Sequence record: ON922919
Source of the DNA: Escherichia phage vB_EcoM_PD205
Direction: 5' to 3' (one strand)
Length of the DNA: 64,000 nucleotides
Part shown: piece after piece, positions 1 through 55,955 of the stretch
Layout of the letters: each line of letters opens with the position of its first letter
Position numbering within the stretch: position 1 is the first letter of the stretch
The notes under the pieces: generated by a model
What the model was told of the DNA's origin: nothing
Database searches by the model: none
What the model saw: the letters and a program-made list of their open reading frames with translations, nothing else
Made by a program: the position numbers and the translations under genes

Positions 1-1074
1 CTGACGACGCAGGTCATTACCGTAGTTAGGATGGCAACGGAAGCAGTCATGTACAGTCATTACAGGGAAAGGTTTCTTAGGCATAGTATTGAGCATAGCC
101 AGGATTACATCTGTATCTACCAATGCAATGGTTTCTGAATCCAGATAATCAAAGATACGGGTAGACAGGAATCCAGACTTCTCATAACTAGTCCATAATG
201 TATTAACCATTTCATAGTTATCATCAGAACCAACCATGTAGTCACCAGTTCCTTCACAGATGGACTTAACATAGTTCACCTGGTTCATGTCGAAGTTACA
301 ACGACGTAGCATCTCACGTACCACCATTCCATCAATAGAGTGGGTGATGTTAGCAGAGAGCATACGGGTCTTCTCTTCAGTACCCTGAACCATACGAGTG
401 ATGTCGAATGGCTTACCTAAGAAGTTAACAGTCTGTACTTCAGGAACCATGACCTTAATGACAGCATGGAAGTTGTCAGGGAGTACCCATATGTAACGGT
501 TAGCATCTGGGTTACCACATTGCAGTAAGAACTTGTTAAGTGCCCAAGGACCACTAGCAACAGTTTCCATTACATTCTCAAAAGTCTTGAGACGAATACC
601 TTCACCGAATACTTCTTTAGGCTTGGCTTCTGAACCGTAGAATGCAGTCATAACAGCCTGTTTAGTGTCACTACGTTTAATACGTGATGCTTCACCAAGG
701 ATGTCCAGCATCTTGTGATAGATGACTGTATAAGCATCACGGCGTAATGGTTTACCATTCTCGCCCATGTAGTTAACTACGTTACACAGTTCAGCAGCAG
801 AGCGGTCACCAGTCAGGCAAGCCAGTAACTGCAAGCCTGATGATGTAGCATCCAGAGCTACGGCATAACCGATAGGCTTACCAGCTTTCATATCTTTCCA
901 TGCATTTATGCCTGCAAAGAACAGAGCAGAATCTTCAGCTTCATCTACCAGATTAAGCAGGTTAGCTTCGTTCTCATCGAACCAGGCAATACGTTCATCC
1001 CATGTCTTCTTGTCTAAGCCATAGTTATTAGCGATATCTACTTTCAGGTATTCACGAGCGGTTAACAGTTGCAT
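1..1074 (-). CDS. T7-like single-subunit RNA polymerase catalytic fragment (N4 RNAP II large-subunit-like); gene runs off the window start, only N-terminal ~358 codons present
   Basis: Own translation of minus strand from ATG 1074..1072 (AAGGAA 6 nt upstream): MQLLTAREYLKVDIANNYGLDKKTWDERIAWFDENEANLLNLVDEAEDSALFFAGINAWKDMKAGKPIGYAVALDATSSGLQLLACLTGDRSAAELCN... (verified codon by codon to this point); DATSSGLQ resembles T7 RNAP motif A (DGSCSGIQ). Less carefully checked continuation shows motif B-like MTAFYGSEAKPK and motif C-like VHDCF. Not in ORF track because it is open at the window edge. Confidence 0.8.
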   Translation of the reverse strand, partial: MQLLTAREYLKVDIANNYGLDKKTWDERIAWFDENEANLLNLVDEAEDSALFFAGINAWKDMKAGKPIGYAVALDATSSGLQLLACLTGDRSAAELCNVVNYMGENGKPLRRDAYTVIYHKMLDILGEASRIKRSDTKQAVMTAFYGSEAKPKEVFGEGIRLKTFENVMETVASGPWALNKFLLQCGNPDANRYIWVLPDNFHAVIKVMVPEVQTVNFLGKPFDITRMVQGTEEKTRMLSANITHSIDGMVVREMLRRCNFDMNQVNYVKSICEGTGDYMVGSDDNYEMVNTLWTSYEKSGFLSTRIFDYLDSETIALVDTDVILAMLNTMPKKPFPVMTVHDCFRCHPNYGNDLRRQ

Positions 1075-1118
1075 TTTATGTTCCTTAGCGTCTTGAGCCA
1101 CTCGGCTCGCATAGTGGA

Positions 1119-1625
1119 TTAATAGTTATTAAGTTCTTTGTTTGTTTTGGCGAACTCACCAAAGTATTTAATTGCGGCATCATCATATGCTTTAGCAGCC
1201 TCCACTGGGTCAGTGAATGAACCTAATGCTATTTTGGTGCCTTTAACTTGAATTTGGGCTAGGTATTTACCATTACGAATACGCACACCTTTAAATCCAG
1301 AAGTGTTATTCTTGTTCATAGTTCTATTGCACATGTTCTGTGCATGAGTTGCCTCACGTAGGTTACACCAACGGTTATTGGCCCGGTTTGTATCATTATG
1401 ATCTACCTGTTCGGGCCATGAACCAGTCATGATACACCAGGCTATGTGGTGAGCCTTGTATTCCTGTTTATTAATGACAATCTTTCGATGTCCTCTGGAG
1501 CCTGATAAGCCAGTCTCCTTACCCCTTACGTTGATGTACACCAAAGGACTATGAGTCCAATGAAATGTTCCATTCACTGGGTCATAGTCGATTAGTTCCA
1601 TCAACTCTGCTTGAGTTGGTTTCAT
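1119..1625 (-). CDS. HNH homing endonuclease with C-terminal AP2-like DNA-binding domain
   Basis: 168 aa ORF; HNH-type core (GHRKIVINKQEYKAHHIAWCIMTGSWPEQVDHNDTNRANNRWCNLREATHAQNMCN) and AP2-like tail (GFKGVRIRNGKYLAQIQVKGTKIALGSFTDPVEAAKAYDDAAIKYFG); start overlaps upstream stop (TAATG). Confidence 0.75.
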   Translation of the reverse strand: MKPTQAELMELIDYDPVNGTFHWTHSPLVYINVRGKETGLSGSRGHRKIVINKQEYKAHHIAWCIMTGSWPEQVDHNDTNRANNRWCNLREATHAQNMCNRTMNKNNTSGFKGVRIRNGKYLAQIQVKGTKIALGSFTDPVEAAKAYDDAAIKYFGEFAKTNKELNNY

Positions 1626-2440
1626 TAGTCCTCTACTGGTTCTTTGTCTGCAAATTCAATAACAGCTTTGTTATAGGAAGTGCCTTGGTAGGATATATGG
1701 TATCCGGAACAGTAAGTACGTCCTCTCTTATCGTAACGGTGAGCCAGTGAGAAGTTATTACCTTCTTTGGTCACTAACTCCATTACTTCCTTAGCTGTAC
1801 GGCTGTACTTCTCAAAGGCTTTAACACGTTTCTCGTAGTCCTGACGGGTTTCACCTTCTTTGGGTTTATCCATATTAGGACGAGAGTCTTTTACATAGTT
1901 AGCAACGTCCCAGTTAATGCAGAGACGTTGATTGTTCATACGGTTGATGTGGTCAAGACAGACATCCATCTCATGATGGTTCTTCTTGAGGATGATGCTA
2001 CCTCTGCTTTCGTAGTAACCAGTATCACGGTTACACAGAACAGGCTTAGGAGCACTTACGATAGGCAATGGATACTGGAATGCTTCCAGTTCCATCTGAA
2101 CATCTTCACTAATCTCATAAATAACACCGAACTTGTCGATGGTAGGGTCATAGTTGAAGCAGTCATTCTCTGCCATCTTATACAGACAGTCAGCAATGTA
2201 CTGAGCATCATCTGAGTGACTCATGAGTGAGCCAATCATAGTTTGGATGTCAGCACGTTTATGTAGGGCAATCTGCACCATTGCATCAATGAGCAGCTTA
2301 TAATCAATTTCTAAATAGGCAGCGAATGCCTTAAAGTCAATTTCTTCGGAGTCCTCGAATTCCTTCCTCATGCGAGGGAGTAATTGATTTTTGTTGAAAA
2401 GGATTTCAAGTTGCTTCTGATGTTCAATAGATGAGTACAT
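1625..2440 (-). CDS. T7-like RNA polymerase N-terminal catalytic-domain fragment (N4 RNAP II small-subunit-like)
   Basis: 271 aa; AHRYDKRGRTYCSGYHISYQG resembles T7 RNAP DxRGR motif region (MDWRGRVYAV); AGGAG RBS 9 nt upstream of ATG 2440; directly upstream of the large-subunit fragment. Confidence 0.65.
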   Translation of the reverse strand: MYSSIEHQKQLEILFNKNQLLPRMRKEFEDSEEIDFKAFAAYLEIDYKLLIDAMVQIALHKRADIQTMIGSLMSHSDDAQYIADCLYKMAENDCFNYDPTIDKFGVIYEISEDVQMELEAFQYPLPIVSAPKPVLCNRDTGYYESRGSIILKKNHHEMDVCLDHINRMNNQRLCINWDVANYVKDSRPNMDKPKEGETRQDYEKRVKAFEKYSRTAKEVMELVTKEGNNFSLAHRYDKRGRTYCSGYHISYQGTSYNKAVIEFADKEPVED

Positions 2441-2473
2441 CGCTTATTCTCCTAAATGTGATTAATAACCAAA

Positions 2474-2488
2474 AGCTGCGGAGCAGCT
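2474..2488 (-). promoter_or_regulatory. N4 vRNAP-type hairpin promoter (AGCTGC-GGA-GCAGCT, 6 bp stem, 3 nt loop); predicted +1 near 2470, transcription leftward
   Basis: Perfect inverted repeat with GGA loop on plus (template) strand, core GCGGAGC; 35 nt upstream of RNAP II gene start (2440); -11 G at loop centre and -8 G in stem; predicted +1 template base is C. Confidence 0.55.
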
Positions 2489-2493
2489 ATTAC

Positions 2494-2754
2494 CTAACGC
2501 TTAGTCCAAAAGGTAATACGAATACTATTTTCATTACCAATGTAGTCGATACGTACATGCAGACCATTACCATTAAACTCATTACTTTTCTTCTGATAAG
2601 GCCAGACTAGGCTAGTCATAGGTATTTTAACTAAGCCGGATATGTGACCCAGCTTAGTACGACTCTTTAATTCGTTCTGTAATGCACAATAGATGTCATG
2701 TCGTGTAAGTGCTCTAGCTCTGACTTGGGCAGACCACAGTTCTTCATAAGTCAT
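2494..2754 (-). CDS. hypothetical early protein
   Basis: ORF track 2494..2766 begins at TTG; in-frame ATG 2754..2752 preceded by TTGGAG (part of conserved CAACTATTGGAG motif) chosen as start. Confidence 0.4.
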   Translation of the reverse strand: MTYEELWSAQVRARALTRHDIYCALQNELKSRTKLGHISGLVKIPMTSLVWPYQKKSNEFNGNGLHVRIDYIGNENSIRITFWTKR

Positions 2755-2756
2755 TA

Positions 2757-3107
2757 TTAACTCCAATAGTTGTAAGCATTACCTAAGTATTTACACCATG
2801 CTTCTGGCAATAGCACATTGCCAGTGACATTATTGAACGGGTATGGGTCCAGAAAGTCATCTCCCATTACTTTGAAATCCCATTGAGGATTAACAGATGC
2901 ATAGGCAATAAAGCCTTCAACGAAGCCATAGATAGCACCCTCTTTAATTCGGTTACCATTGCCATCTCTTACTGGAATGGCAAAGCTATTACCATAATGT
3001 CCATAGGCCATACCCCAGCGAGCACCATGCTTCTTATAAGCTAATTTGGCAGCAGCATTAGTATGTTGTCCAAGTGTATTGGTAGTGAATACTAAGATCT
3101 CTTTCAT
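2757..3107 (-). CDS. hypothetical protein (Rossmann-like small protein, family not assigned)
   Basis: 116 aa ORF, ATG start, tightly packed in same-strand operon; Gly-rich motifs (GARWGMAYGHYGNSFAIP). Confidence 0.4.
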   Translation of the reverse strand: MKEILVFTTNTLGQHTNAAAKLAYKKHGARWGMAYGHYGNSFAIPVRDGNGNRIKEGAIYGFVEGFIAYASVNPQWDFKVMGDDFLDPYPFNNVTGNVLLPEAWCKYLGNAYNYWS

Positions 3108-4415: not shown

Positions 4416-4669
4416 GCTACTTTCTCCAGCGTTAGGTAAACGTTATTATTGACAATACTCAAATCACAGAAACCAATCTCTTCTTGTCTCCCAGAGGATA
4501 CCCAAATATTGTTTTTTGTTAGCTTAGGCTTCTTAGAGAAACCTATTAGTGAGGTATTAGCGCTCTTATATTGACGAGTATATAGAGCTATATACTTAAC
4601 CCAGTGAGGCACTTGAATAGTATGCTTCATATATTCCACAGTCTTACCTGTAGGATATGTAATAATCAT
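4412..4669 (-). CDS. hypothetical protein
   Basis: 85 aa ORF, ATG, overlapping-stop operon arrangement. Confidence 0.35.
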   Translation of the reverse strand: MIITYPTGKTVEYMKHTIQVPHWVKYIALYTRQYKSANTSLIGFSKKPKLTKNNIWVSSGRQEEIGFCDLSIVNNNVYLTLEKVA

Positions 4670-4887
4670 TTCTGATAACCTTCTATGAAGTTAGTACGAC
4701 GAATGAGCTGAGTGGATGCTTTAACAGCCGTCTTCTTGAACTCATCTTTGTGTTGGTTTTCCAATATCTTATCCCATTCTTTCTGGTTCCGTCGTTTCTG
4801 TAGGATACGACTACACTTTTTATGATTAGCAACTCCTTTACGTTTGTTACATACAGGGCAAATACCATAATTAGTGCTGTACATCAT
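4666..4887 (-). CDS. hypothetical protein with CxxC...C motif
   Basis: 73 aa; CPVCNKRKGVANHKKC; GGAGG upstream. Confidence 0.35.
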   Translation of the reverse strand: MMYSTNYGICPVCNKRKGVANHKKCSRILQKRRNQKEWDKILENQHKDEFKKTAVKASTQLIRRTNFIEGYQK

Positions 4888-5192
4888 TGGCTTAAAGCCT
4901 CCATTAATATTTTACGAATAACATTTACATCAGATTCAGTACCAATTAAGCCAACAGGCTTACCTGTACTATCTGTTACAAAGGTTGCAATCCTTTCCAT
5001 CTCTGCTGTAATTAATTTGTCCCCACTAATAAGACGATTACGAAGGTAAGCTTCATAAGCTACCTCTACATCTTCTACTGTGGTTCTTTCATTACGAGTG
5101 AATGGATTACTTAATGGGAATGGTAAGTGGATACGTATATTCCGGTCAGCTATCTTAGCTGATTGAGGAAGTATACAAACAATTTCATTCAA
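4884..5192 (-). CDS. hypothetical protein (weak DUF4326-like PLSNPF motif, lacks Cys/His tail)
   Basis: 102 aa; TTG start at 5192 with AGGAG 9 nt upstream (no in-frame ATG near); HLPFPLSNPF...AYEAYL resembles the GNPF...Y.WL core of the 3536..3916 protein. Confidence 0.35.
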   Translation of the reverse strand: MNEIVCILPQSAKIADRNIRIHLPFPLSNPFTRNERTTVEDVEVAYEAYLRNRLISGDKLITAEMERIATFVTDSTGKPVGLIGTESDVNVIRKILMEALSQ

Positions 5193-5270
5193 GATAATTT
5201 CTCCTATTTAAATACATATCTAACTATTCAAGAATAAAAAATAGAAGCCCCCCTAATGGAGCACTCCTTG

Positions 5271-5447
5271 TTATTTGATACATGGATGATTGAAGGTTAC
5301 GATACGAGCTTTACTTTGTTTAAGTCCTGCATCAATGAACTCTTTCAGCTGTTCATTGGTCATGCTGAGTGCCCGTTTACTTGCTACATTACGATTACGC
5401 ATACGAGTAACGTCTTCTTTGGTTCCCATGATTAATGACTTACGCAT
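5271..5447 (-). CDS. hypothetical protein
   Basis: ORF track 5271..5462 starts at GTG; first in-frame ATG at 5447; no clear RBS; low confidence. Confidence 0.25.
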   Translation of the reverse strand: MRKSLIMGTKEDVTRMRNRNVASKRALSMTNEQLKEFIDAGLKQSKARIVTFNHPCIK

Positions 5448-5610
5448 GATTTGGTTGTCCACATAAAGTTAAAAGGTTTATTGTTACGTACAATTCTTAC
5501 AACCATTTGATAGCCATTGAGTTGCACAACACCATAGTGTCGTTTCTGTACACCAGTGTGATACCTACGAAAGATACATTCTTCAATGGCATCATCTATG
5601 TTAGTGAATA

Positions 5611-5799
5611 TCACTGGTTCCTCTTTGCAAACTCTTCTGCTTGTTGCTTGTAGTACTGAGTCATTGCTTTCTTGTGTTTAACACTAGCAATGAGACACTC
5701 GATAGTAACGAATGGCAGCTTAGCAATAAGCAACCATTTATGACGTAATTTCCAACCCAGAAAGTAGAAGATTACACAGAAAGCGATGAAGTCTAACAT
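5611..5799 (-). CDS. hypothetical small membrane protein
   Basis: 62 aa; hydrophobic N-terminus (MLDFIAFCVIFYFLGW); GAGGA RBS. Confidence 0.3.
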   Translation of the reverse strand: MLDFIAFCVIFYFLGWKLRHKWLLIAKLPFVTIECLIASVKHKKAMTQYYKQQAEEFAKRNQ

Positions 5800-5900
5800 G
5801 GTTAATTCCTCTTCTAATATAAATCTATATCTATCTGGTTACTGTTTCAGTACCCTTCGTCTAAAGATACTCAAAAAGTAGAAATAGCTTATCGTCTAGT

Positions 5901-5930
5901 TAAAAATAAAAGACTCCCCGAAGGGAGTCT
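5901..5930 (-). terminator. rho-independent terminator (AGACTCCC-CGAA-GGGAGTCT; RNA loop UUCG) with U-tract
   Basis: 8 bp perfect stem 5911..5930; on minus strand followed by UUUAUUUUUA (5901..5910); 10 nt after stop of gene 5940..6320. Confidence 0.7.
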
Positions 5931-5939
5931 AGTAGTTGA

Positions 5940-6320
5940 TTAGAAAGTCAGTTTACGAGCATATTTATTCTCGTCTGCTGGGATGTCAGCAGCCTCTGCT
6001 TTCACACGACGAAGTTGAACTTGCAGGTTAATGATACCCTCTTCGCCTGGTTCCAGGTTCTGAGCATATTCAATTAACTGTTCCAGCAAGTCGTTCTGTG
6101 CACAACGCATTGCACGGAAGTCTTCGTTAGAGGAATTGGTTGGCAGATGCTCCTGAGTATCCAGTGGAATACCAGTAGGCAGAGAGATGAAACGTTCATC
6201 TTCAGTGCCTTCATTAGCAACATAACCAATGTTCAGCCAGAACTGAGCTTTAGGTTTATCAGCTTTAGCAGTGGTAGCAGCAGCGTTAGATTGACCGAAA
6301 GTGAATTTTTGAATAGACAT
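5940..6320 (-). CDS. hypothetical early protein (compact promoter-gene-terminator unit)
   Basis: ORF track 5940..6413; internal ATG 6320 with GGAGAG RBS chosen; hairpin promoter 6425..6439 upstream and terminator 5911..5930 downstream. Confidence 0.45.
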
Positions 6321-6424
6321 TTTGTACTCTCCAGATTTATGTGATTTACGGGTGAACTCGTCGGTGAGAACACCCAAACAAAAGGATAAAAGTTCAATGA
6401 TTAGTGGATGCATTTACATCCTTT

Positions 6425-6439
6425 AGACGCGGAGCGTCT
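6425..6439 (-). promoter_or_regulatory. N4 vRNAP-type hairpin promoter (AGACGC-GGA-GCGTCT); predicted +1 near 6421
   Basis: Perfect 6 bp stem with GGA loop, core GCGGAGC; intergenic between stop of 6446..6724 and gene 5940..6320; predicted +1 template base C. Confidence 0.55.
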
Positions 6440-6445
6440 TGATAA

Positions 6446-6724
6446 TTACTTGAAGAAATGTGGGTAGTCTTCTATGAATTGAGCTAAGTCATGTACATGC
6501 TCAATGACAGCTTTACGCTTGCACTGGCGTACTTGTTTAGCCGTAGGCTTAGATGTGAAAGCATACTGATGTACAGATGCAGTCATAGGGTTATCATCAA
6601 CTGATATCTCTACATCTACGGCCCATTGTGCAGGATTAGAAGTGTACATCATTCGAGATTTAGTAAATGTAGTTGAATGATTAAATGGTGATACATAGTG
6701 GATTGAGGTGTGAATAGTACGCAT
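6446..6724 (-). CDS. hypothetical early protein
   Basis: 92 aa ORF; ATG 6724 preceded by conserved CAACTATTGGAG motif; hairpin promoter 35 nt upstream. Confidence 0.4.
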   Translation of the reverse strand: MRTIHTSIHYVSPFNHSTTFTKSRMMYTSNPAQWAVDVEISVDDNPMTASVHQYAFTSKPTAKQVRQCKRKAVIEHVHDLAQFIEDYPHFFK

Positions 6725-48986: not shown

Positions 48987-51140
48987 TTACTTGCCAGCGA
49001 AGCGTTTAGCCACGGTGACCATTACGGTTGCATTCAATTCATCATCTGGTAATGGATTAGTCAGTTTCTTATTGAATGAGTGGACGGCTTGCTGTACTTG
49101 GGCAAAGTCCCAACCACTGTCAACCAATGCCAGTGCGTACTTAATCATTTGATTATTACGATTACCGGTAGCAATACGACTAGCGAACCAACGCTCCAGA
49201 TTATCCAACGACTGTACTTCCTTCATCTGGTTCCGGAACTGCTCGTTCTTACTAGTACGAGGAATAAAATCACGCACGTCCAACAGATTTGCTTCAAGAT
49301 TGTAATGATAGGAACCAGTCTCGCAGGACATCCACTTCTTGGCTCGTTGGTTAGCAGATTCATCTGTTTCGAACGGTAGCCAAGACATGACGTTATTCAT
49401 GAACTCTTTGTATTCCTCAGTGTCGAGGTGTAATTCATAGTTCATTGGAATAATCAGTCGGAATCGGTTCTCTTCATCAGAATGGCGTTTAGTGGTATAG
49501 GTCATGAACTTATATTCCTTCATCAGTTCATGGCACGTATGCAGAGGTACTCCACCATCACAGTCAATAACAATCATGTTAAATCCTGGAATAACGTTCT
49601 CTTCAGAACGATGCCCATTCTTCATGTGATGGTTTACCCAATGCATACCTGGAGCTTGGGTTAATACATGCAACTGGTCGAACGGTACACGTTCACCAAT
49701 GTAGTCATAAGCAAAGCTATCACTATATGCCACTATCATCTCATTGATGTCAGTCTCTTTCAGAGTCTCACCACGGAAGAACTCAATACCTTCGTTGAAG
49801 GTTTTCTTAATGATGATATGCTGTTTGTAGCCCCATGCTGTAGCAAGAGTCATCATCTCATTACGAGCTGCATTGCCACTCTTATAGAACGGTAACGACT
49901 CCACCAAGTCAGCATGAGTTACTTCTTTACCTACAGAAGCAATGTACTTAGCCAGCTTCACATAAGCCTTCTCGCGATTGAGGATTGTCTGAAATGCTGC
50001 CCCAGATTCCTCTACGAGCAGGATTGCTTGTTTAAGGTGAGACATTTCAATGAATGAACTCTGGTCAACAAACGCCAGTGCTCCAGCCAGCTTAAGAGCT
50101 TTGAAGTAACGGTGGGAAATTTCGGCCTTACGAATTTCTTCGTGGTCAGCCATAGCTTCTGCTTGTTTCTCACAATCAATCTTGTAAGTAATCAGAGCAA
50201 TACCCACAGCATCTTCCACAACCATCTTAAAGCCAAACAGGTTTGGGTCAGCCAAACTATGGAAGTGGTTGGCCCACTTGCCAAGAGACTGTACGTTATC
50301 CTGCTTAATCAGGTTACGGTAGATTTCTTCTGGAGACATTGTTGCATGTGCTCGCTTGTCTAAATGCCCAATCGCAAACAGACATCGACGTGCATACCCT
50401 GTATCCAGAAAGTCATAGAACTGATCTTCGGTCTGACCACCATCCAGTAACTTACTTGGCGTACCAAATAACAACAGGTTAGCTGGAGTCTTACCATCCA
50501 GTTCTTCACCACGAACACTTTCAGCAGTGTTCTTGGTTAACTTCTGCTTAACCTTACCCTGGTCATATAATTCCAGGAACAGGGTTAATACATCTGTGTT
50601 AGCCAACAGGTTTGAACCAATTTCATCAATCTGAAGGTTGATTGAACCACACCCAGCCATTAACAGTTTATGCCGTAGTTGTTTAACTGCTGGTGGAGTA
50701 CCTGAGTCAAACGTAAACGGATATGCCCCAGCACGCTTATACTCTGCTTCAACTTTATCAAACTCATCATTCTGGTCTGTACCTTGTCGAGCAGCACGTT
50801 CGTTAGCAATCTTCCATAAACGGTCATTTGCAATGACGGGCATGGTGTCTTCCATAAAACGTTTACGGAAGCCAGTCATAAACCCGTCTTCAATAATATT
50901 TACCGAGTGACCTTTACCGAAGCCAGACGTTGCTAATGCCATAGCGTAAATGTTGACTGGTAAGTCACCACGGTCTTTAGTGACAATGGTTGCACCCATG
51001 CAGGATGCCATTTTAGCCAGGAAGTAGGCTACTTCGACACGGAAGAATCCTCTGTCGTTGTTTTGTGTCTTGTTACACAGCACGTCTACAATTTCTTCAA
51101 TTGCAGGGTGGTGAGTGACTCCGGTCAGGTCAATACTCAT
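48987..51140 (-). CDS. putative DNA primase / replication initiation protein
   Basis: ORF track 48987..51197; ATG 51140 (MSIDLTGV...) overlapping upstream stop preferred; C-terminal region primase-C-terminal-like; assignment tentative. Confidence 0.4.
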   Translation of the reverse strand: MSIDLTGVTHHPAIEEIVDVLCNKTQNNDRGFFRVEVAYFLAKMASCMGATIVTKDRGDLPVNIYAMALATSGFGKGHSVNIIEDGFMTGFRKRFMEDTMPVIANDRLWKIANERAARQGTDQNDEFDKVEAEYKRAGAYPFTFDSGTPPAVKQLRHKLLMAGCGSINLQIDEIGSNLLANTDVLTLFLELYDQGKVKQKLTKNTAESVRGEELDGKTPANLLLFGTPSKLLDGGQTEDQFYDFLDTGYARRCLFAIGHLDKRAHATMSPEEIYRNLIKQDNVQSLGKWANHFHSLADPNLFGFKMVVEDAVGIALITYKIDCEKQAEAMADHEEIRKAEISHRYFKALKLAGALAFVDQSSFIEMSHLKQAILLVEESGAAFQTILNREKAYVKLAKYIASVGKEVTHADLVESLPFYKSGNAARNEMMTLATAWGYKQHIIIKKTFNEGIEFFRGETLKETDINEMIVAYSDSFAYDYIGERVPFDQLHVLTQAPGMHWVNHHMKNGHRSEENVIPGFNMIVIDCDGGVPLHTCHELMKEYKFMTYTTKRHSDEENRFRLIIPMNYELHLDTEEYKEFMNNVMSWLPFETDESANQRAKKWMSCETGSYHYNLEANLLDVRDFIPRTSKNEQFRNQMKEVQSLDNLERWFASRIATGNRNNQMIKYALALVDSGWDFAQVQQAVHSFNKKLTNPLPDDELNATVMVTVAKRFAGK

Positions 51141-52117
51141 GATGGAAAATATCTCTCTCTTTGTTTGCAAATGGTTGCGACAGGGCAGTATAGACAACGC
51201 TTAACCTGTCCCTCCACGACCTTGATAGCACCCTTGCCACCTTTTTCAGCCATGAAGATACGAGCAGATGCCATATCGTCAAAGTTTTTGGTACTTCTGG
51301 CTCCAGGTACATCTACCTTAGAAGCATCAGAGAAGTATTTGAATTGTGGCTCTGTTCGCCACAACTCCTCGTCAGTACATTCAGGAATTTCCTCTTCAGG
51401 AGCATTCCAGTACTTTTCAATGAGGTGAATCTTCTCTTCTACCCAACGTTCAGTCTTATCGACAGATAGCAACGGAATATCCTTATGCATAATACGATTA
51501 GCAGGATAGTTCGGATTGCTATTAGCCATGTGCTTCATGAAGTCAGTGAAGATGTAGTTAATACGAATTACATCCTCAGTAATGATGTCGTTGTGAATCC
51601 AACGATACAAGCTGCCTTGCATCTTGTGTTCATCATCACGGGAACCAGCAACCCAGGAATAGGTTGAGGTAGACTTAAAGTCCTGCAACAGACCTTCTGT
51701 TACGATGTCAAACTTACCACCGATAGTCCAACCCTTAACTACCCTGGTTCCACGTTGTTCAATGTAGATTGGGATAAGGTCAGGGTTAGCATCAAAGTCT
51801 GCTTTGGTTGGGTTAATGACTACTGCATCAATTACTCGCTGAGGATAACCTAGCTTCTTCAATGCAGTCTTGTGGCCCAGCTTCCAGGCTTTCTCGATAG
51901 AATCATGTAAACCAGTACCCATTGATGTGGAGACGAAATCCATAACATCAATTGACTGGTCACTTAAATCTACACGATGTTTCATGACGATTTGCTTAAT
52001 GGGCTTAAGCAATGTAGTAACAGACAGATACTTAGGATTGTCTACGTAATCATACTCATCATGTAATAGCCATACAGCCAGAGCCAGTGAGACATCATGA
52101 TTGTTGGTTATCTTCAT
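51137..52117 (-). CDS. PD-(D/E)XK family nuclease (RecB/Cas4-like exonuclease) with C-terminal Cys cluster
   Basis: 326 aa; FDIVTEGLLQDFK (D...D.K) and C-terminal CLYCPVATIC suggestive of Fe-S-containing Cas4/RecB-like nuclease. Confidence 0.45.
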   Translation of the reverse strand: MKITNNHDVSLALAVWLLHDEYDYVDNPKYLSVTTLLKPIKQIVMKHRVDLSDQSIDVMDFVSTSMGTGLHDSIEKAWKLGHKTALKKLGYPQRVIDAVVINPTKADFDANPDLIPIYIEQRGTRVVKGWTIGGKFDIVTEGLLQDFKSTSTYSWVAGSRDDEHKMQGSLYRWIHNDIITEDVIRINYIFTDFMKHMANSNPNYPANRIMHKDIPLLSVDKTERWVEEKIHLIEKYWNAPEEEIPECTDEELWRTEPQFKYFSDASKVDVPGARSTKNFDDMASARIFMAEKGGKGAIKVVEGQVKRCLYCPVATICKQRERYFPS

Positions 52118-52379: not shown

Positions 52380-52684
52380 TATTCCCCCTTGGGGATCATG
52401 TTTGCCTGGAACTCTGGTTCAGACATCAGACCCAGGTTGCTGAGAGACAGATAAACAATGTCTTTCAAATCAACCGAAGTGTCGAAACGTTGGTCCAGAC
52501 TAATCTTCAGGGAATGATTGGCACGAGCCAAATCTTTGTAGGTCACATAAGGTTCATCAGTGAGCAACATTGTGTTCATGGTAAGCAGGGAACCATCATC
52601 CACTTTAGGAAGTTGGAATACTACCTGTGCTGCTACCATCCAATGATATTTTTTGACTACAGTTTCTTTAGTACTTTTGGTCAT
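52379..52684 (-). CDS. hypothetical protein
   Basis: 101 aa ORF, TAATG/ATGA overlaps. Confidence 0.35.
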   Translation of the reverse strand: MTKSTKETVVKKYHWMVAAQVVFQLPKVDDGSLLTMNTMLLTDEPYVTYKDLARANHSLKISLDQRFDTSVDLKDIVYLSLSNLGLMSEPEFQANMIPKGE

Positions 52685-53511
52685 GCGAATGCCTTTTGAA
52701 TTATTTGATGAACTTCTTCTGGGGTAGCGTGATTTGGAATTTCAATCTCGTTAGCCCACGTTGGGTAGAACAAGGATAGTTCCCCACCCAAGCCAACTTC
52801 TGGATGAGCAATATCGGGATGGTCTTGCCAGTTAACGGCCTCAACCAAGTGCTTGTTCGTGAACTGCAAGGTATCCATGTTGTCACGAATCATGAAGTAC
52901 TGAGCATCGTGAATGTGAATACTAGGACGTATATCTAACCTGAACTCACTGGCTCTGACTTTACGCATAAATTCTGAACCAGCACGATTATTTAGTAGAC
53001 ACCAGCTTTGCCCTAAAGCATTACCAGCAGTTCTGCCTTCTGCTTCTGCTTCATACGGAGTCTTACATGTCCCACGTAATACTTGAGCCAGTAAAGGAGT
53101 ACGCACTCTCAAACCGAATGCGGCAGTAACATAACCAGTTTTGGCAGCTTCGTCTAGTTTAGCCTGAACCCACATGTCGCTAACTACATAGAGGTCGTGA
53201 TAACGTTTCTCTGTAGTCTTAGCCTTCTCTTCAGAGAAGCCACAGTTTTTCATTAAGCCCATATATGTACCACCATAAGTAAGCAAGAAGGTTGGAGCCT
53301 TCGAGTCACTACGTAATGATTTGTACTTATGCTGGATGGAGTTAATGGATTCTACCGTGTCTTCTATGTCTGGCATCTGCTCACCAAAGTAAGCATATGC
53401 ACGGAGACTGTGTCCATCATAGCCCGTTGAACTACCTACCTTTTTTACAGATTGAATCTTTTTGCCAGTGAAATCATGAGTTGATTTTGGCAAGTTGTCG
53501 AATTGCGACAT
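52681..53511 (-). CDS. family A DNA polymerase, C-terminal fragment (motifs B and C)
   Basis: 276 aa; GYDGHSLRAYAYFG, KAPTFLLTYGGTYMGL (motif B-like K...YG) and SIHIHDAQYF (motif C-like HD); separate ORF downstream of HNH gene. Confidence 0.7.
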   Translation of the reverse strand: MSQFDNLPKSTHDFTGKKIQSVKKVGSSTGYDGHSLRAYAYFGEQMPDIEDTVESINSIQHKYKSLRSDSKAPTFLLTYGGTYMGLMKNCGFSEEKAKTTEKRYHDLYVVSDMWVQAKLDEAAKTGYVTAAFGLRVRTPLLAQVLRGTCKTPYEAEAEGRTAGNALGQSWCLLNNRAGSEFMRKVRASEFRLDIRPSIHIHDAQYFMIRDNMDTLQFTNKHLVEAVNWQDHPDIAHPEVGLGGELSLFYPTWANEIEIPNHATPEEVHQIIQKAFA

Positions 53512-54016
53512 CTCTGCGGTTCCTCCTCATAACCTCATCCCACTTATGACGGATACCGAGTCTGTCAGCAGTGGTTCTGAGCATTTTATGCAGTGTTTCT
53601 GCACGTCTGCCTATTTCTTGGGCGAGTTCACCTACTTGCTTACCTTCCAGTACTTCAAATAGGTACTTCTCCTTGTCATTTGCAGACATATATCCAGGAC
53701 GTAATCCTGTTCGCAGGGCGTGTTCTGAATTTTGGGATGCTGTACACCATTCCAGATTATCCTTATGGGGATTCTGTTTATTCCCATCCAGATGATTTAC
53801 ATACTTGTATCCATATGGATTGGGAATAAAGTGTTTAGCTACCAGAATATGAACCAATTCCTGTTGGTGCGTACCATCCCCTTTCGCTAAACCAACCTTA
53901 AGATACCCATTAGGATTTACTGTTGGTTTAAGCGGGGAATTGTTAGCAAGATTGGTGATGGAACCATCCTCTGAAATTAGATAACGGTTCTCAAAGTAGG
54001 CTATTGGTATAGGCAT
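53474..54016 (-). CDS. HNH homing endonuclease inserted between DNA polymerase fragments
   Basis: ORF track 53474..54115; ATG 54016 with GGAGAGGA RBS; IAYFENRYLISEDGSITN (NUMOD4-like) and HNH-type region YVNHLDGNKQNPHKDNLEWCTASQNSEH; overlaps end of polymerase N fragment and start of C fragment. Confidence 0.7.
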   Translation of the reverse strand: MPIPIAYFENRYLISEDGSITNLANNSPLKPTVNPNGYLKVGLAKGDGTHQQELVHILVAKHFIPNPYGYKYVNHLDGNKQNPHKDNLEWCTASQNSEHALRTGLRPGYMSANDKEKYLFEVLEGKQVGELAQEIGRRAETLHKMLRTTADRLGIRHKWDEVMRRNRRDVAIRQLAKINS

Positions 54017-55955
54017 TATAAAATTCCTCTCCGGTAAATGTTTTCCCATCATAAACAATTGTATCATCATCTCGGATATGATGGTCAACTCCATCGATAG
54101 TAACGCTATACACAATTACCCCCATGTACACTTTGAGCTTCTGTGGGTCTTTAGTAGTTAGTGCAGAGATTCTGTCTTCCAGCGAGGCGAAATCCAAGCC
54201 GCAAAATATCCAGCCTGGAGGAGCTTCGAAGCATTTCTTAATCTTCTTGGCATATTTAGAGCCGGATGGAATTGTTTGTAGATTTGGCTCTGAAGCCGAT
54301 AGCCTACCGGAGACTGTGCCTCCCAGATTGAGGTTACCGAACAGGTAGTGCCAGCCATCCGGTCCCGGTTGGGCATTCCGGAAAGCTGGTATAAAGCTAG
54401 TGATAATCTTATCCACGAGCTTATAGTCGATAAGTGCATTGAGCAGTTCCTTAACATCTTCACTTTGCGTATGTGTACGCAGTGCTTTAATAGTGTCACC
54501 GTCAGTAGCAGGTTGCTTGCTCTTAGTAAGACCAAGAACTGGTAAGCCAATATAATCAAATAACAGCTTCTGTAGCTGCGGTCCGGAGTTAGGGTTAAAC
54601 TCGATGTCACAATCAGCAAGTGTTACTTGTTTCTTCTTGAGCTTAGCATTCTTATCGTCTACCCATTCCTGACGAAGCATCAGGGTGAAGTTCTTCATGA
54701 GCTTAGACTCACGAATAGTTTTCAGAGCCTGGTTCCTGTCAGTTTCCATCTCTTTAGCTACTTGGTTAACGGTATCCATATTCATGGGCATACCGGTTAA
54801 CTGCATCTGGATAATATCTTCACAAGCTGGCTTAAAGATGTTGTTGTAAACATCCAATTGGTCATCAGCAACGAGAGTATCCCAGTGCTTCTCATAAGTG
54901 TACCACGTACATAAACCATCAATGAGGTTGTAACGTAACAGTTGCTCATTAGGAATAAGACGAATGTCTTTAATATCATCCTGAGCATAGTTACCAGCAT
55001 ACTCCTGAGCCTGGTCTTTCAGACTAAGGTGATTACCAGCACAACTGTTAGTAGCCAGGTAGGTGATTAACTTAGTGCAATCCCAGTTACGCAGCATGAT
55101 TTCCATGCCATGTAGTAAACCTTCTGTATCAATCAGGTTATCCATGAATAACTGATAGATAAGCACATACACGTCATAGCTAATGTTGTGATACATCTGC
55201 CGTTGGGTGTACTTAATGAAGAACTCACGTAGAAGATTTCGAACAATATCATTTCTGTTGATACGCCCATAAGGTGCTTCAGTAGCTCCAGGTATCGGCT
55301 CGTAGTCCACATTAAAGGCTATGCCTTGTGTCTTACTCCAACAGAATGTAATTGTTCCTATACCGGCGTTATAGTGCTTTAAACCGAATGCTTCAATGTC
55401 TATAGCCAGTGGCTTATTCATCTCAAGCAACTGGTCTAGCCAGGCTTTAATCTTTTCTGGGGTATCCGGGTAGGCTTCAAACTCAATGATTCCTTGACCT
55501 GGTTCAGCATACTGCCCACGTATGTGGTTAAGTAATGCATCCATACCCTGAGCAATCTTGGATTTCACTACAGGAGGATCATAAAAGACCTGCCTGTAGC
55601 TAGGTGCATAGATAACTTTCTGCTTACCCCATACTGAGTCACAAACATAGCCGAGGTTAGCCTCTGCTTTTGCTTCTTTAGTCAGTATTTTAAAGTAATC
55701 AGAATCGGTACAGATTATGTATTGAGTTTCTGCATCATCCAGTACTTGTTGCAGTTCCTGCTGTATGAACTCCTTAATCTCCCTTGCAGGAGTCTTCTTC
55801 TTGCCGGGGGCAGAATGAAGTTCAATGAAGATGAAATCTTCCATGCTTAGGTCATTGGGCAGCAGGTAGGTTTTAATCATCTCCTCCCTTCGGATTTGAT
55901 GACCGAGGATAGCAATGGGGTACTTACCCGTATCTTGAGAGGTGATGTAACGCAT
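53991..55955 (-). CDS. family A DNA polymerase, N-terminal fragment (3'-5' exonuclease domain through polymerase motif A)
   Basis: 654 aa; exo motifs (LAIDIEAFG, YHNISYDVYVL, YNLIDGLCTWYTY), GRLSASEPNLQTIP and motif A FCGLDFASLEDR; ends before motif B. Confidence 0.75.
   Translation of the reverse strand: MRYITSQDTGKYPIAILGHQIRREEMIKTYLLPNDLSMEDFIFIELHSAPGKKKTPAREIKEFIQQELQQVLDDAETQYIICTDSDYFKILTKEAKAEANLGYVCDSVWGKQKVIYAPSYRQVFYDPPVVKSKIAQGMDALLNHIRGQYAEPGQGIIEFEAYPDTPEKIKAWLDQLLEMNKPLAIDIEAFGLKHYNAGIGTITFCWSKTQGIAFNVDYEPIPGATEAPYGRINRNDIVRNLLREFFIKYTQRQMYHNISYDVYVLIYQLFMDNLIDTEGLLHGMEIMLRNWDCTKLITYLATNSCAGNHLSLKDQAQEYAGNYAQDDIKDIRLIPNEQLLRYNLIDGLCTWYTYEKHWDTLVADDQLDVYNNIFKPACEDIIQMQLTGMPMNMDTVNQVAKEMETDRNQALKTIRESKLMKNFTLMLRQEWVDDKNAKLKKKQVTLADCDIEFNPNSGPQLQKLLFDYIGLPVLGLTKSKQPATDGDTIKALRTHTQSEDVKELLNALIDYKLVDKIITSFIPAFRNAQPGPDGWHYLFGNLNLGGTVSGRLSASEPNLQTIPSGSKYAKKIKKCFEAPPGWIFCGLDFASLEDRISALTTKDPQKLKVYMGVIVYSVTIDGVDHHIRDDDTIVYDGKTFTGEEFYNAYTNSLL

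Follow-up and report, generated by a model that had tools for sequence, protein, structure and literature searches.

What occupies the boundary between the genes for the two subunits of RNA polymerase II in an N4-like phage, and how did it come to be there? The question is raised by a 64,000-nucleotide stretch of Escherichia phage vB_EcoM_PD205 (record ON922919; hereafter the window), which megablast places in Gamaleyavirus (G7C-like, Schitoviridae) and whose first 3.2 kb have phage PW8 as their closest record (94.6% over 97%). An earlier note on this DNA had described a 168-aa ORF at 1119..1625 as an endonuclease with HNH and AP2 domains wedged between the polymerase genes. The gene, here termed HEG-A, is likely to be a free-standing HNH_3+AP2 homing endonuclease gene, specific for the gp15-gp16 junction of N4-like phages.

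Gene organization at the RNA polymerase II locus

All three genes are co-oriented on the minus strand, as seen in the ORF list and the sequence. The first, gp15 (1625..2440), encodes the 271-aa small subunit of the N4-type RNA polymerase II, contains the motif YDKRGR, ends in ...HRYDKRGRTYCSGYHISYQGTSYNKAVIEFADKEPVED and matches phrog_2166 in PHROGs ('N4-like RNA polymerase', 2e-115); its counterpart in relatives is annotated RNAP1, and it is a homologue of N4 RNAP1. The large subunit is encoded by gp16 (1..1074; start ATG 1074..1072), which matches phrog_2051 in PHROGs (4e-156) and RNA_pol in Pfam (3.7e-14). The left boundary of the window truncates this gene, leaving 358 of about 405 aa visible, and the visible part ends in ...VHDCFRC. 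HEG-A (1119..1625; stop codon 1119..1121), a putative free-standing homing endonuclease gene according to the ORF list, Pfam, phrog_99, an AF2 model and dN/dS, does lie between the two, as the earlier note had it. Also, the overlap between its start and the upstream stop, reported there, is real and takes the form TAATG, in which one base is common to the gp15 stop TAA (1627..1625) and the HEG-A ATG (1625..1623).

A Shine-Dalgarno-like GAGGA (1629..1633, minus strand) is located within the last codons of gp15 (..GTA GAG GAC TAA), 3 nt upstream of the HEG-A ATG. This motif occurs in all HEG-bearing junction alleles, HEG-free alleles having GAAGA or GATGA in its place, and it probably serves a coupled start of HEG-A at TAATG. 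On the other side of HEG-A, 44 bp of the native gp15-gp16 spacer are retained (1075..1118, minus strand), 94% identical to the empty-site spacer of phiG17. They contain the gp16 ribosome-binding site AAGGAA (1081..1086, minus strand) and a short hairpin, GAGCC-GAGT-GGCTC (1095..1108), which is no more stable than shuffled sequence (z -0.2). Among relatives this spacer exists in two alternative versions, with a short, GC-rich hairpin of the form GAGCC-NNNN-GGCTC or GGCTCTCC-ATAG-TGGGGAGCC, followed in both cases by an identical gp16 ribosome-binding region. A scan of 900..2700 restricted to sigma-70 promoters, as distinct from those of N4 type, recovered no independent one for HEG-A. Just upstream of the gp15 start, between a 90-aa ORF and gp15, a terminator-like hairpin (AGCTGC-TCC-GCAGCT, then TTTGG; 2474..2488, minus strand) was noticed, which in an N4-like phage could equally be a virion RNA polymerase hairpin promoter.

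In phage N4, RNAP1 (4603..5412) and RNAP2 (5460..6674) are separate genes with a 47-bp gap and no insert, and the ORFs flanking HEG-A in the window match these separate N4 gp15 and gp16 genes. Since these two genes already stand apart in N4, with nothing between them, the two-subunit state is native and the ORF is an insertion between genes, not a disruption; an insert splitting a single polymerase gene is thereby ruled out. A native two-subunit polymerase in N4-like phages has also been reported, together with the hypothesis that homing endonucleases are linked to the origin of the split polymerase (PMC5418858). Searching 1..3000 against Rfam recovered no intron or other family at E<=1 and the flanking ORFs are complete, HEG-A being located outside any self-splicing intron or intein.

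The HEG-A protein

The domain architecture read from the letters alone is confirmed. Pfam recovers HNH_3 (PF13392) at aa 56-98 (E 2e-13; 50.2 bits against a cut-off of 24.8), and AP2 (PF00847) at aa 109-156 with a score under the Pfam cut-off (E 0.0014; 19.4 bits against 33.3); a precomputed PF00847 match is present in many HEG-A homologues. The catalytic core, with D75, H76, N88 and N97, corresponds to 1332..1460 and the C-terminal AP2 DNA-binding domain (about aa 108-168) to 1122..1304, both on the minus strand. In PHROGs the protein matches the HNH endonuclease family phrog_99 (4e-64). Across 48 aligned homologues H76 and N88 never vary, and at least 90% of the sequences keep D75, N84, L89, R90 and N97. 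Comparison with the PDB by phmmer recovered plant AP2 domains (WRI1, 3.5e-8) and, weakly, I-HmuI, with its catalytic residues in register. In the AF2 model (pLDDT 95) the predicted beta-beta-alpha-metal fold resembles that of a solved family member, and the AP2 region forms a three-stranded sheet packed on a helix that can be superposed on solved AP2 domains. Taken together, the Pfam and PHROGs matches, the conserved residues and the PDB matches identify the predicted product as an I-HmuI-like HNH nuclease with AP2 as its C-terminal DNA-binding module. Such a combination of HNH and AP2 is a recognised class of homing endonucleases (Magnani 2004, as cited in PMC10448857). For HEG-A, dN/dS is 0.05-0.16 in comparisons of lineages whose dS reaches about 2, indicating that the protein is maintained.

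Occupancy of the gp15-gp16 junction in relatives

The gp15-gp16 junction was extracted from 24 gamaleyavirus genomes; scanning IMG/VR with gp15 contributed no more than 3 further loci. In EC1-UPM and phiG17 the junction is empty and measures 55-56 bp. Relative to phiG17, HEG-A is a base-precise insertion of about 495 bp, which extends from the stop codon of gp15 to its own. Small ORFs occupy the junction in other genomes: one of 53 aa in St11Ph5, ECBP1, PhAPEC5, PhAPEC7 and PE007, one of 79 aa in UE-S5b and AN24P2, both the 53-aa and the 79-aa ORF in IME11, and ORFs of 38 and 80 aa in E20. HEG-A is found in the window, PW8, Mimir124 and one IMG/VR contig. A different 168-aa HNH_3+AP2 gene, HEG-B, only 31% identical to HEG-A over 74 aa, is present in UE-S5a and another IMG/VR contig; UE-M3 and UE-M6, which lie outside the 24-genome extraction, seem HEG-B-like by length and annotation. 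HEG-C (193 aa, NUMOD1) occupies the junction in G7C (gp15.1), Bas96, ST4 and PGN829.1, and HEG-D (204 aa, 32% identical to HEG-C) that in pSb-1 and HK2.

Thus the comparison with relatives proposed in the earlier note, which had counted a lack of insert-free alleles against its reading, does yield such alleles, those of EC1-UPM and phiG17 and the 47-bp gap of N4, and most other gamaleyaviruses hold something other than this ORF at the site. HEG-A DNA is found in only 2 of 50,697 GenBank phage records, both times at the same site: in PW8 (XLQ29955.1, 97% aa identity), where it is annotated 'hypothetical protein', and in Mimir124 (XLZ23656.1, 90.5% aa identity), where it is annotated 'HNH endonuclease'. 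The possibility that the small junction ORFs are decayed HEGs was considered and rejected, as those of 38, 53 and 79 aa have no similarity to the HEGs at E<=1; they are therefore regarded as unrelated cassettes.

Diverged flanks and chimeric junctions

The bodies of gp15 and gp16 are 92-96.5% identical whatever the junction type, and backbone similarity is unrelated to junction type, the closest backbones to the window being those of St11Ph5 (96.5%) and HK2 (96.3%), both of which lack HEG-A. Across 23 genomes nucleotide diversity is 0.02-0.08 over most of gp15 and gp16. Peaks occur at the 3' end of gp15 (0.25-0.27, last ~115 nt), at the 5' end of gp16 (0.15-0.16, first ~78 nt) and also at the 5' end of gp15 (0.12-0.13, first ~78 nt). 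A second hypervariable block is present in gamaleyavirus gp16 at nt 781-975 (about 100..294 of the window), with a diversity of 0.23-0.43 over a baseline of 0.03-0.08. It is distinct from the published g16 group I intron site (bioRxiv 10.1101/542787; QAVMTAFYGSEAK, about gp16 nt 415-450), which is uninterrupted in the window.

The tract that accompanies HEG-A, the last ~115 nt of gp15 (1625..1741, minus strand; encoding HRYDKRGRTYCSGYHIS...), is a putative co-conversion or immunity tract. It is 88-96% identical among the HEG-A genomes and ST4, and 61-73% identical to all others. Among carriers, leaving out the near-identical pairs window/PW8 and L026/L028 (the latter two metagenomic contigs), dS is 0.75-2.2 for HEG-A, 0.7-2.9 for the gp15 tail and 0.2-0.6 for the gene bodies. 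The tail thus resembles HEG-A in dS, at 2-6 times the gene-body value, which points to a deeper, separate history common to the gene and the tail. Type C presents the mirror image, with the first ~60 nt of gp16 diverged.

HEG type and gp15-tail haplotype do not correspond strictly one to one, given that ST4 and PGN829.1 are mosaics and that type B occurs with two different tails. In ST4 (OM982646, 1376..2777) an A-type gp15 tail, 94-96% identical to that of the window, is combined with HEG-C and a C-type gp16 5' end. This junction looks like a chimera in which one homing element has displaced another. At the DxRGR motif of gp15, HRYD replaces HKYD in all gamaleyavirus HEG-A alleles, and TYC replaces TYA in most of them, variant A3 being without TYC; as candidate immunity or co-conversion markers these substitutions are only a lead.

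The HEG-A lineage beyond close relatives

Protein searches recovered HEG variants 76-80% identical to HEG-A at the same junction of gamaleyavirus-like metagenomic contigs, with flanks 89-97% identical. In distant N4-like phages, where identity to the window falls to 44-48% for gp15 and gp16, the same gp15-gp16 junction is occupied by homologues 60-62% identical to HEG-A, and the overlap of stop and start codons is repeated there. Relative to its flanks, the HEG therefore diverges faster within the genus and is more conserved between genera, a pattern that is irreconcilable with vertical descent at constant relative rates. This incongruence argues for spread of the HEG-A lineage by horizontal, site-specific transfer. 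Six metagenomic contigs with an identical A4 protein share an island of ~1% mismatches that extends from about gp15 nt 615 to the end of the HEG, within flanks that have about 7% mismatches.

Related genes occur at other sites. A clade of ~45%-identical HEGs has a different fixed site, between exonuclease and primase, and an HNH-AP2 paralogue, about 41-46% identical, lies beside the exonuclease gene in many gamaleyaviruses (PhAPEC5, ZQ2, PBM-2, G7C, ECBP1 and others). In the window the exonuclease is present (51137..52117, minus strand, and neighbourhood) and tblastn recovered no HNH-AP2 paralogue there, nor any HEG-A paralogue elsewhere in the window. On metagenomic contig L026, an extra HNH_3+AP2 gene (1183..1659; 158 aa, 36% identical to HEG-A) is located immediately upstream of gp15, which is thus bracketed by two HNH_3+AP2 genes. 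N4-like early genes, namely a gp15-like gene, a HEG-A homologue and a gp16-like RNA_pol gene, the last two separated by four small ORFs, were also found on a 153-kb contig labelled as a Mesorhizobium sp. MAG (L032; GCA_004016625.1, SAJN01000019.1). The contig probably represents either phage DNA assigned to a bacterial bin or a region derived from a phage.

A homing model for HEG-A and its alternatives

The signatures of mobility recovered at this locus are a precise presence/absence polymorphism, a diverged linked flank, purifying selection, phylogenetic incongruence and use of the same site in divergent genomes. According to the homing model, HEG-A would be co-transcribed with gp15 and gp16, and its translation coupled to that of gp15 by TAATG and GAGGA. 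During co-infection with a HEG-less relative, the AP2 domain and the I-HmuI-like N-terminal region would bind the insert-free gp15 3' end and spacer, and the HNH site (D75/H76/N88/N97), judging from its fold and conserved residues, would nick or cut the insert-free allele. Among solved nucleases the closest, I-HmuI, is a nicking enzyme. Repair of the break, with the HEG-bearing genome as template, would then fall to recombination proteins of the phage itself, and genes for an exonuclease, a Sak4-like annealing protein, an SSB and a RuvC-like resolvase are present in the window. Such repair would bring in the gene (~495 bp) along with the neighbouring ~115-200 nt of gp15, the tract observed to be co-inherited. 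Carriers could be protected by the insertion, which separates the halves of the site, by the gp15 tail, about 35% diverged, or by both. That homing is 'active', as the earlier note had suggested, we infer from the same patterns.

Three alternatives were weighed, and all of them rank below homing. The junction might be a general recombination hot spot, where cassettes are swapped via the conserved gp15 and gp16 flanks and the HNH gene is a passenger whose nuclease is irrelevant to its spread. Non-nuclease ORFs of 38, 53 and 79-80 aa, with no HEG remnants, do shuffle here (53+79 in IME11, 38+80 in E20), ST4 resembles a chimera recombined exactly at the junction, and about 22 such indel or replacement loci are known in G7C-like phages (bioRxiv 10.1101/542787). 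Exchange of non-nuclease ORFs also means that cassette swapping does not strictly depend on the HEG-A enzyme, a caution that applies to the homing model itself. Furthermore, the A-type gp15 tail is not exclusive to HEG-A, as it stands next to a type-C gene in ST4, and association statistics are not independent since the compared genomes are related. A hot spot of this kind is nevertheless unlikely to be the explanation, considering that four different endonuclease-like genes are concentrated in one 55-bp spacer, that the HEG lineage occupies the same site despite flanks of 44-48% protein-level identity, probably too diverged for homologous recombination, that carriers share a low-diversity island centred on HEG-A, and that its catalytic residues are conserved with dN/dS about 0.1.

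Constraint on the protein can be read in other ways. A domesticated, host-beneficial protein would also show strong purifying selection, and HEG-A could accordingly be of benefit to the phage, as an AP2 DNA-binding regulator or as a nuclease directed against rival phages or the DNA of the host. Its purifying selection and the predicted coupling of its expression to the early polymerase operon fit such a role, AP2-domain phage proteins can be sequence-specific transcriptional silencers (CasPRs, bioRxiv 10.64898/2026.02.23.707548) and HEG-derived domains have been co-opted repeatedly (PMC10448857). Domestication is quite improbable all the same: HEG-A is distributed sporadically and is missing from most gamaleyaviruses, the closest backbones among them; unrelated HEGs are interchangeable with it at the junction; and the HNH catalytic residues, unnecessary for a pure regulator, are kept. 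Most improbable is that HEG-A is inactive, left over from an earlier invasion and unable by now to cut or to move. HEG life-cycle theory does predict decay after fixation (PMC5418858), yet HEG-A is far from fixed, near-identical copies occur in diverged backbones, the ORF is full-length with intact catalytic residues and a fold predicted with high confidence, and dN/dS remains at 0.05-0.16 over dS values up to about 2.

A broader joint reading, which goes beyond homing by HEG-A and is offered as a rather doubtful possibility, is that the 55-bp gp15-gp16 spacer is a contested landing pad on which at least four endonuclease lineages compete and displace one another, each with its own converted flank. 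ST4 would then be the footprint of HEG-C replacing HEG-A, and HEG-A would recognise the DNA encoding the gp15 DxRGR motif across Schitoviridae genera. If true, the locus would be a tractable natural system for HEG-versus-HEG competition, and would test the published idea that the N4 two-subunit RNA polymerase arose from homing-endonuclease insertion.

Relation to known systems

HEG-A reveals no new kind of element. An HNH gene between RNAP1 and RNAP2 is already known in G7C-like phages, where a 'G7C-type' RNAP1-HNH-RNAP2 layout with a different HNH gene has been described (Amgarten et al. 2017, PMC5418858). The HNH-AP2 class is likewise published (PMC10448857). In the literature searched no published analysis of the HEG-A gene was found, and the vECPW8 paper, apparently on PW8, does not discuss it. 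Within that literature, the HEG-A lineage itself, its recurrence at the gp15-gp16 junction across distant N4-like phages and the four-way occupancy of one spacer appear to be undescribed. The PW8 gene annotated 'hypothetical protein' can now be named, and in gamaleyaviruses neither the 3' end of gp15 nor its junction with gp16 is suitable as a vertical marker. A 55-bp spacer that, within a single genus, holds any of four nuclease-like genes, small-ORF cassettes or nothing at all offers a compact natural system for the study of homing-endonuclease competition, co-conversion and target recognition beside an essential polymerase motif.

Among free-standing elements, T4 SegA-G and MobE resemble HEG-A in being nuclease genes between conserved essential genes, present or absent among relatives, and SegG-style co-conversion resembles it in the co-inherited flanking polymorphisms. 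References for the T4 systems are listed in PMC10448857. The T4 Seg proteins are GIY-YIG enzymes, and experiments have demonstrated cleavage and marker exclusion by the T4 elements, whereas cleavage by HEG-A is predicted. I-HmuI (PDB 1u3e, Bacillus phage SPO1) differs in being an intron-encoded HNH nicking endonuclease, HEG-A being free-standing, and in having a helical/HTH C-terminal DNA-binding region where HEG-A has AP2; identity is only 18%. In location, HEG-A is matched by G7C gp15.1 (HQ259105), a putative HNH homing endonuclease gene of the same genus, spacer and orientation. However, the 193-aa product of gp15.1 has a NUMOD1 module and shows no similarity to HEG-A that could be detected, and gp15.1 abuts gp16 and goes with a diverged gp16 5' end, whereas HEG-A goes with a diverged gp15 3' end. 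In domain order, the 'IPA-HNH' HEGs of ICP1 (Barth et al. 2023, PMC10448857) are similar, with an N-terminal HNH and a C-terminal AP2, and they too are free-standing phage genes at boundaries of genetic exchange. Their HNH is too divergent for Pfam HNH_3, unlike the canonical HNH_3 of HEG-A, and both the host phage family and the target locus are different.

A second HNH gene in the window

The second homing endonuclease gene that the earlier note had counted in the window is indeed present, at the DNA polymerase. It is a 213-aa HNH ORF (53474..54115, minus strand; phrog_59, 2.4e-38) located between two DNA-polymerase ORFs on the same strand (53991..55955, 654 aa, and 52681..53511, 276 aa) and overlapping both. 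At this locus (52681..55955) the polymerase gene does appear to be split. Similar arrangements are the non-splicing insertion in g39 of phage 10Gb, which leaves two polymerase fragments (bioRxiv 10.1101/542787), and metagenomic locus L037, where a split DNA_pol_A is accompanied by an HNH_3/NUMOD4 ORF.
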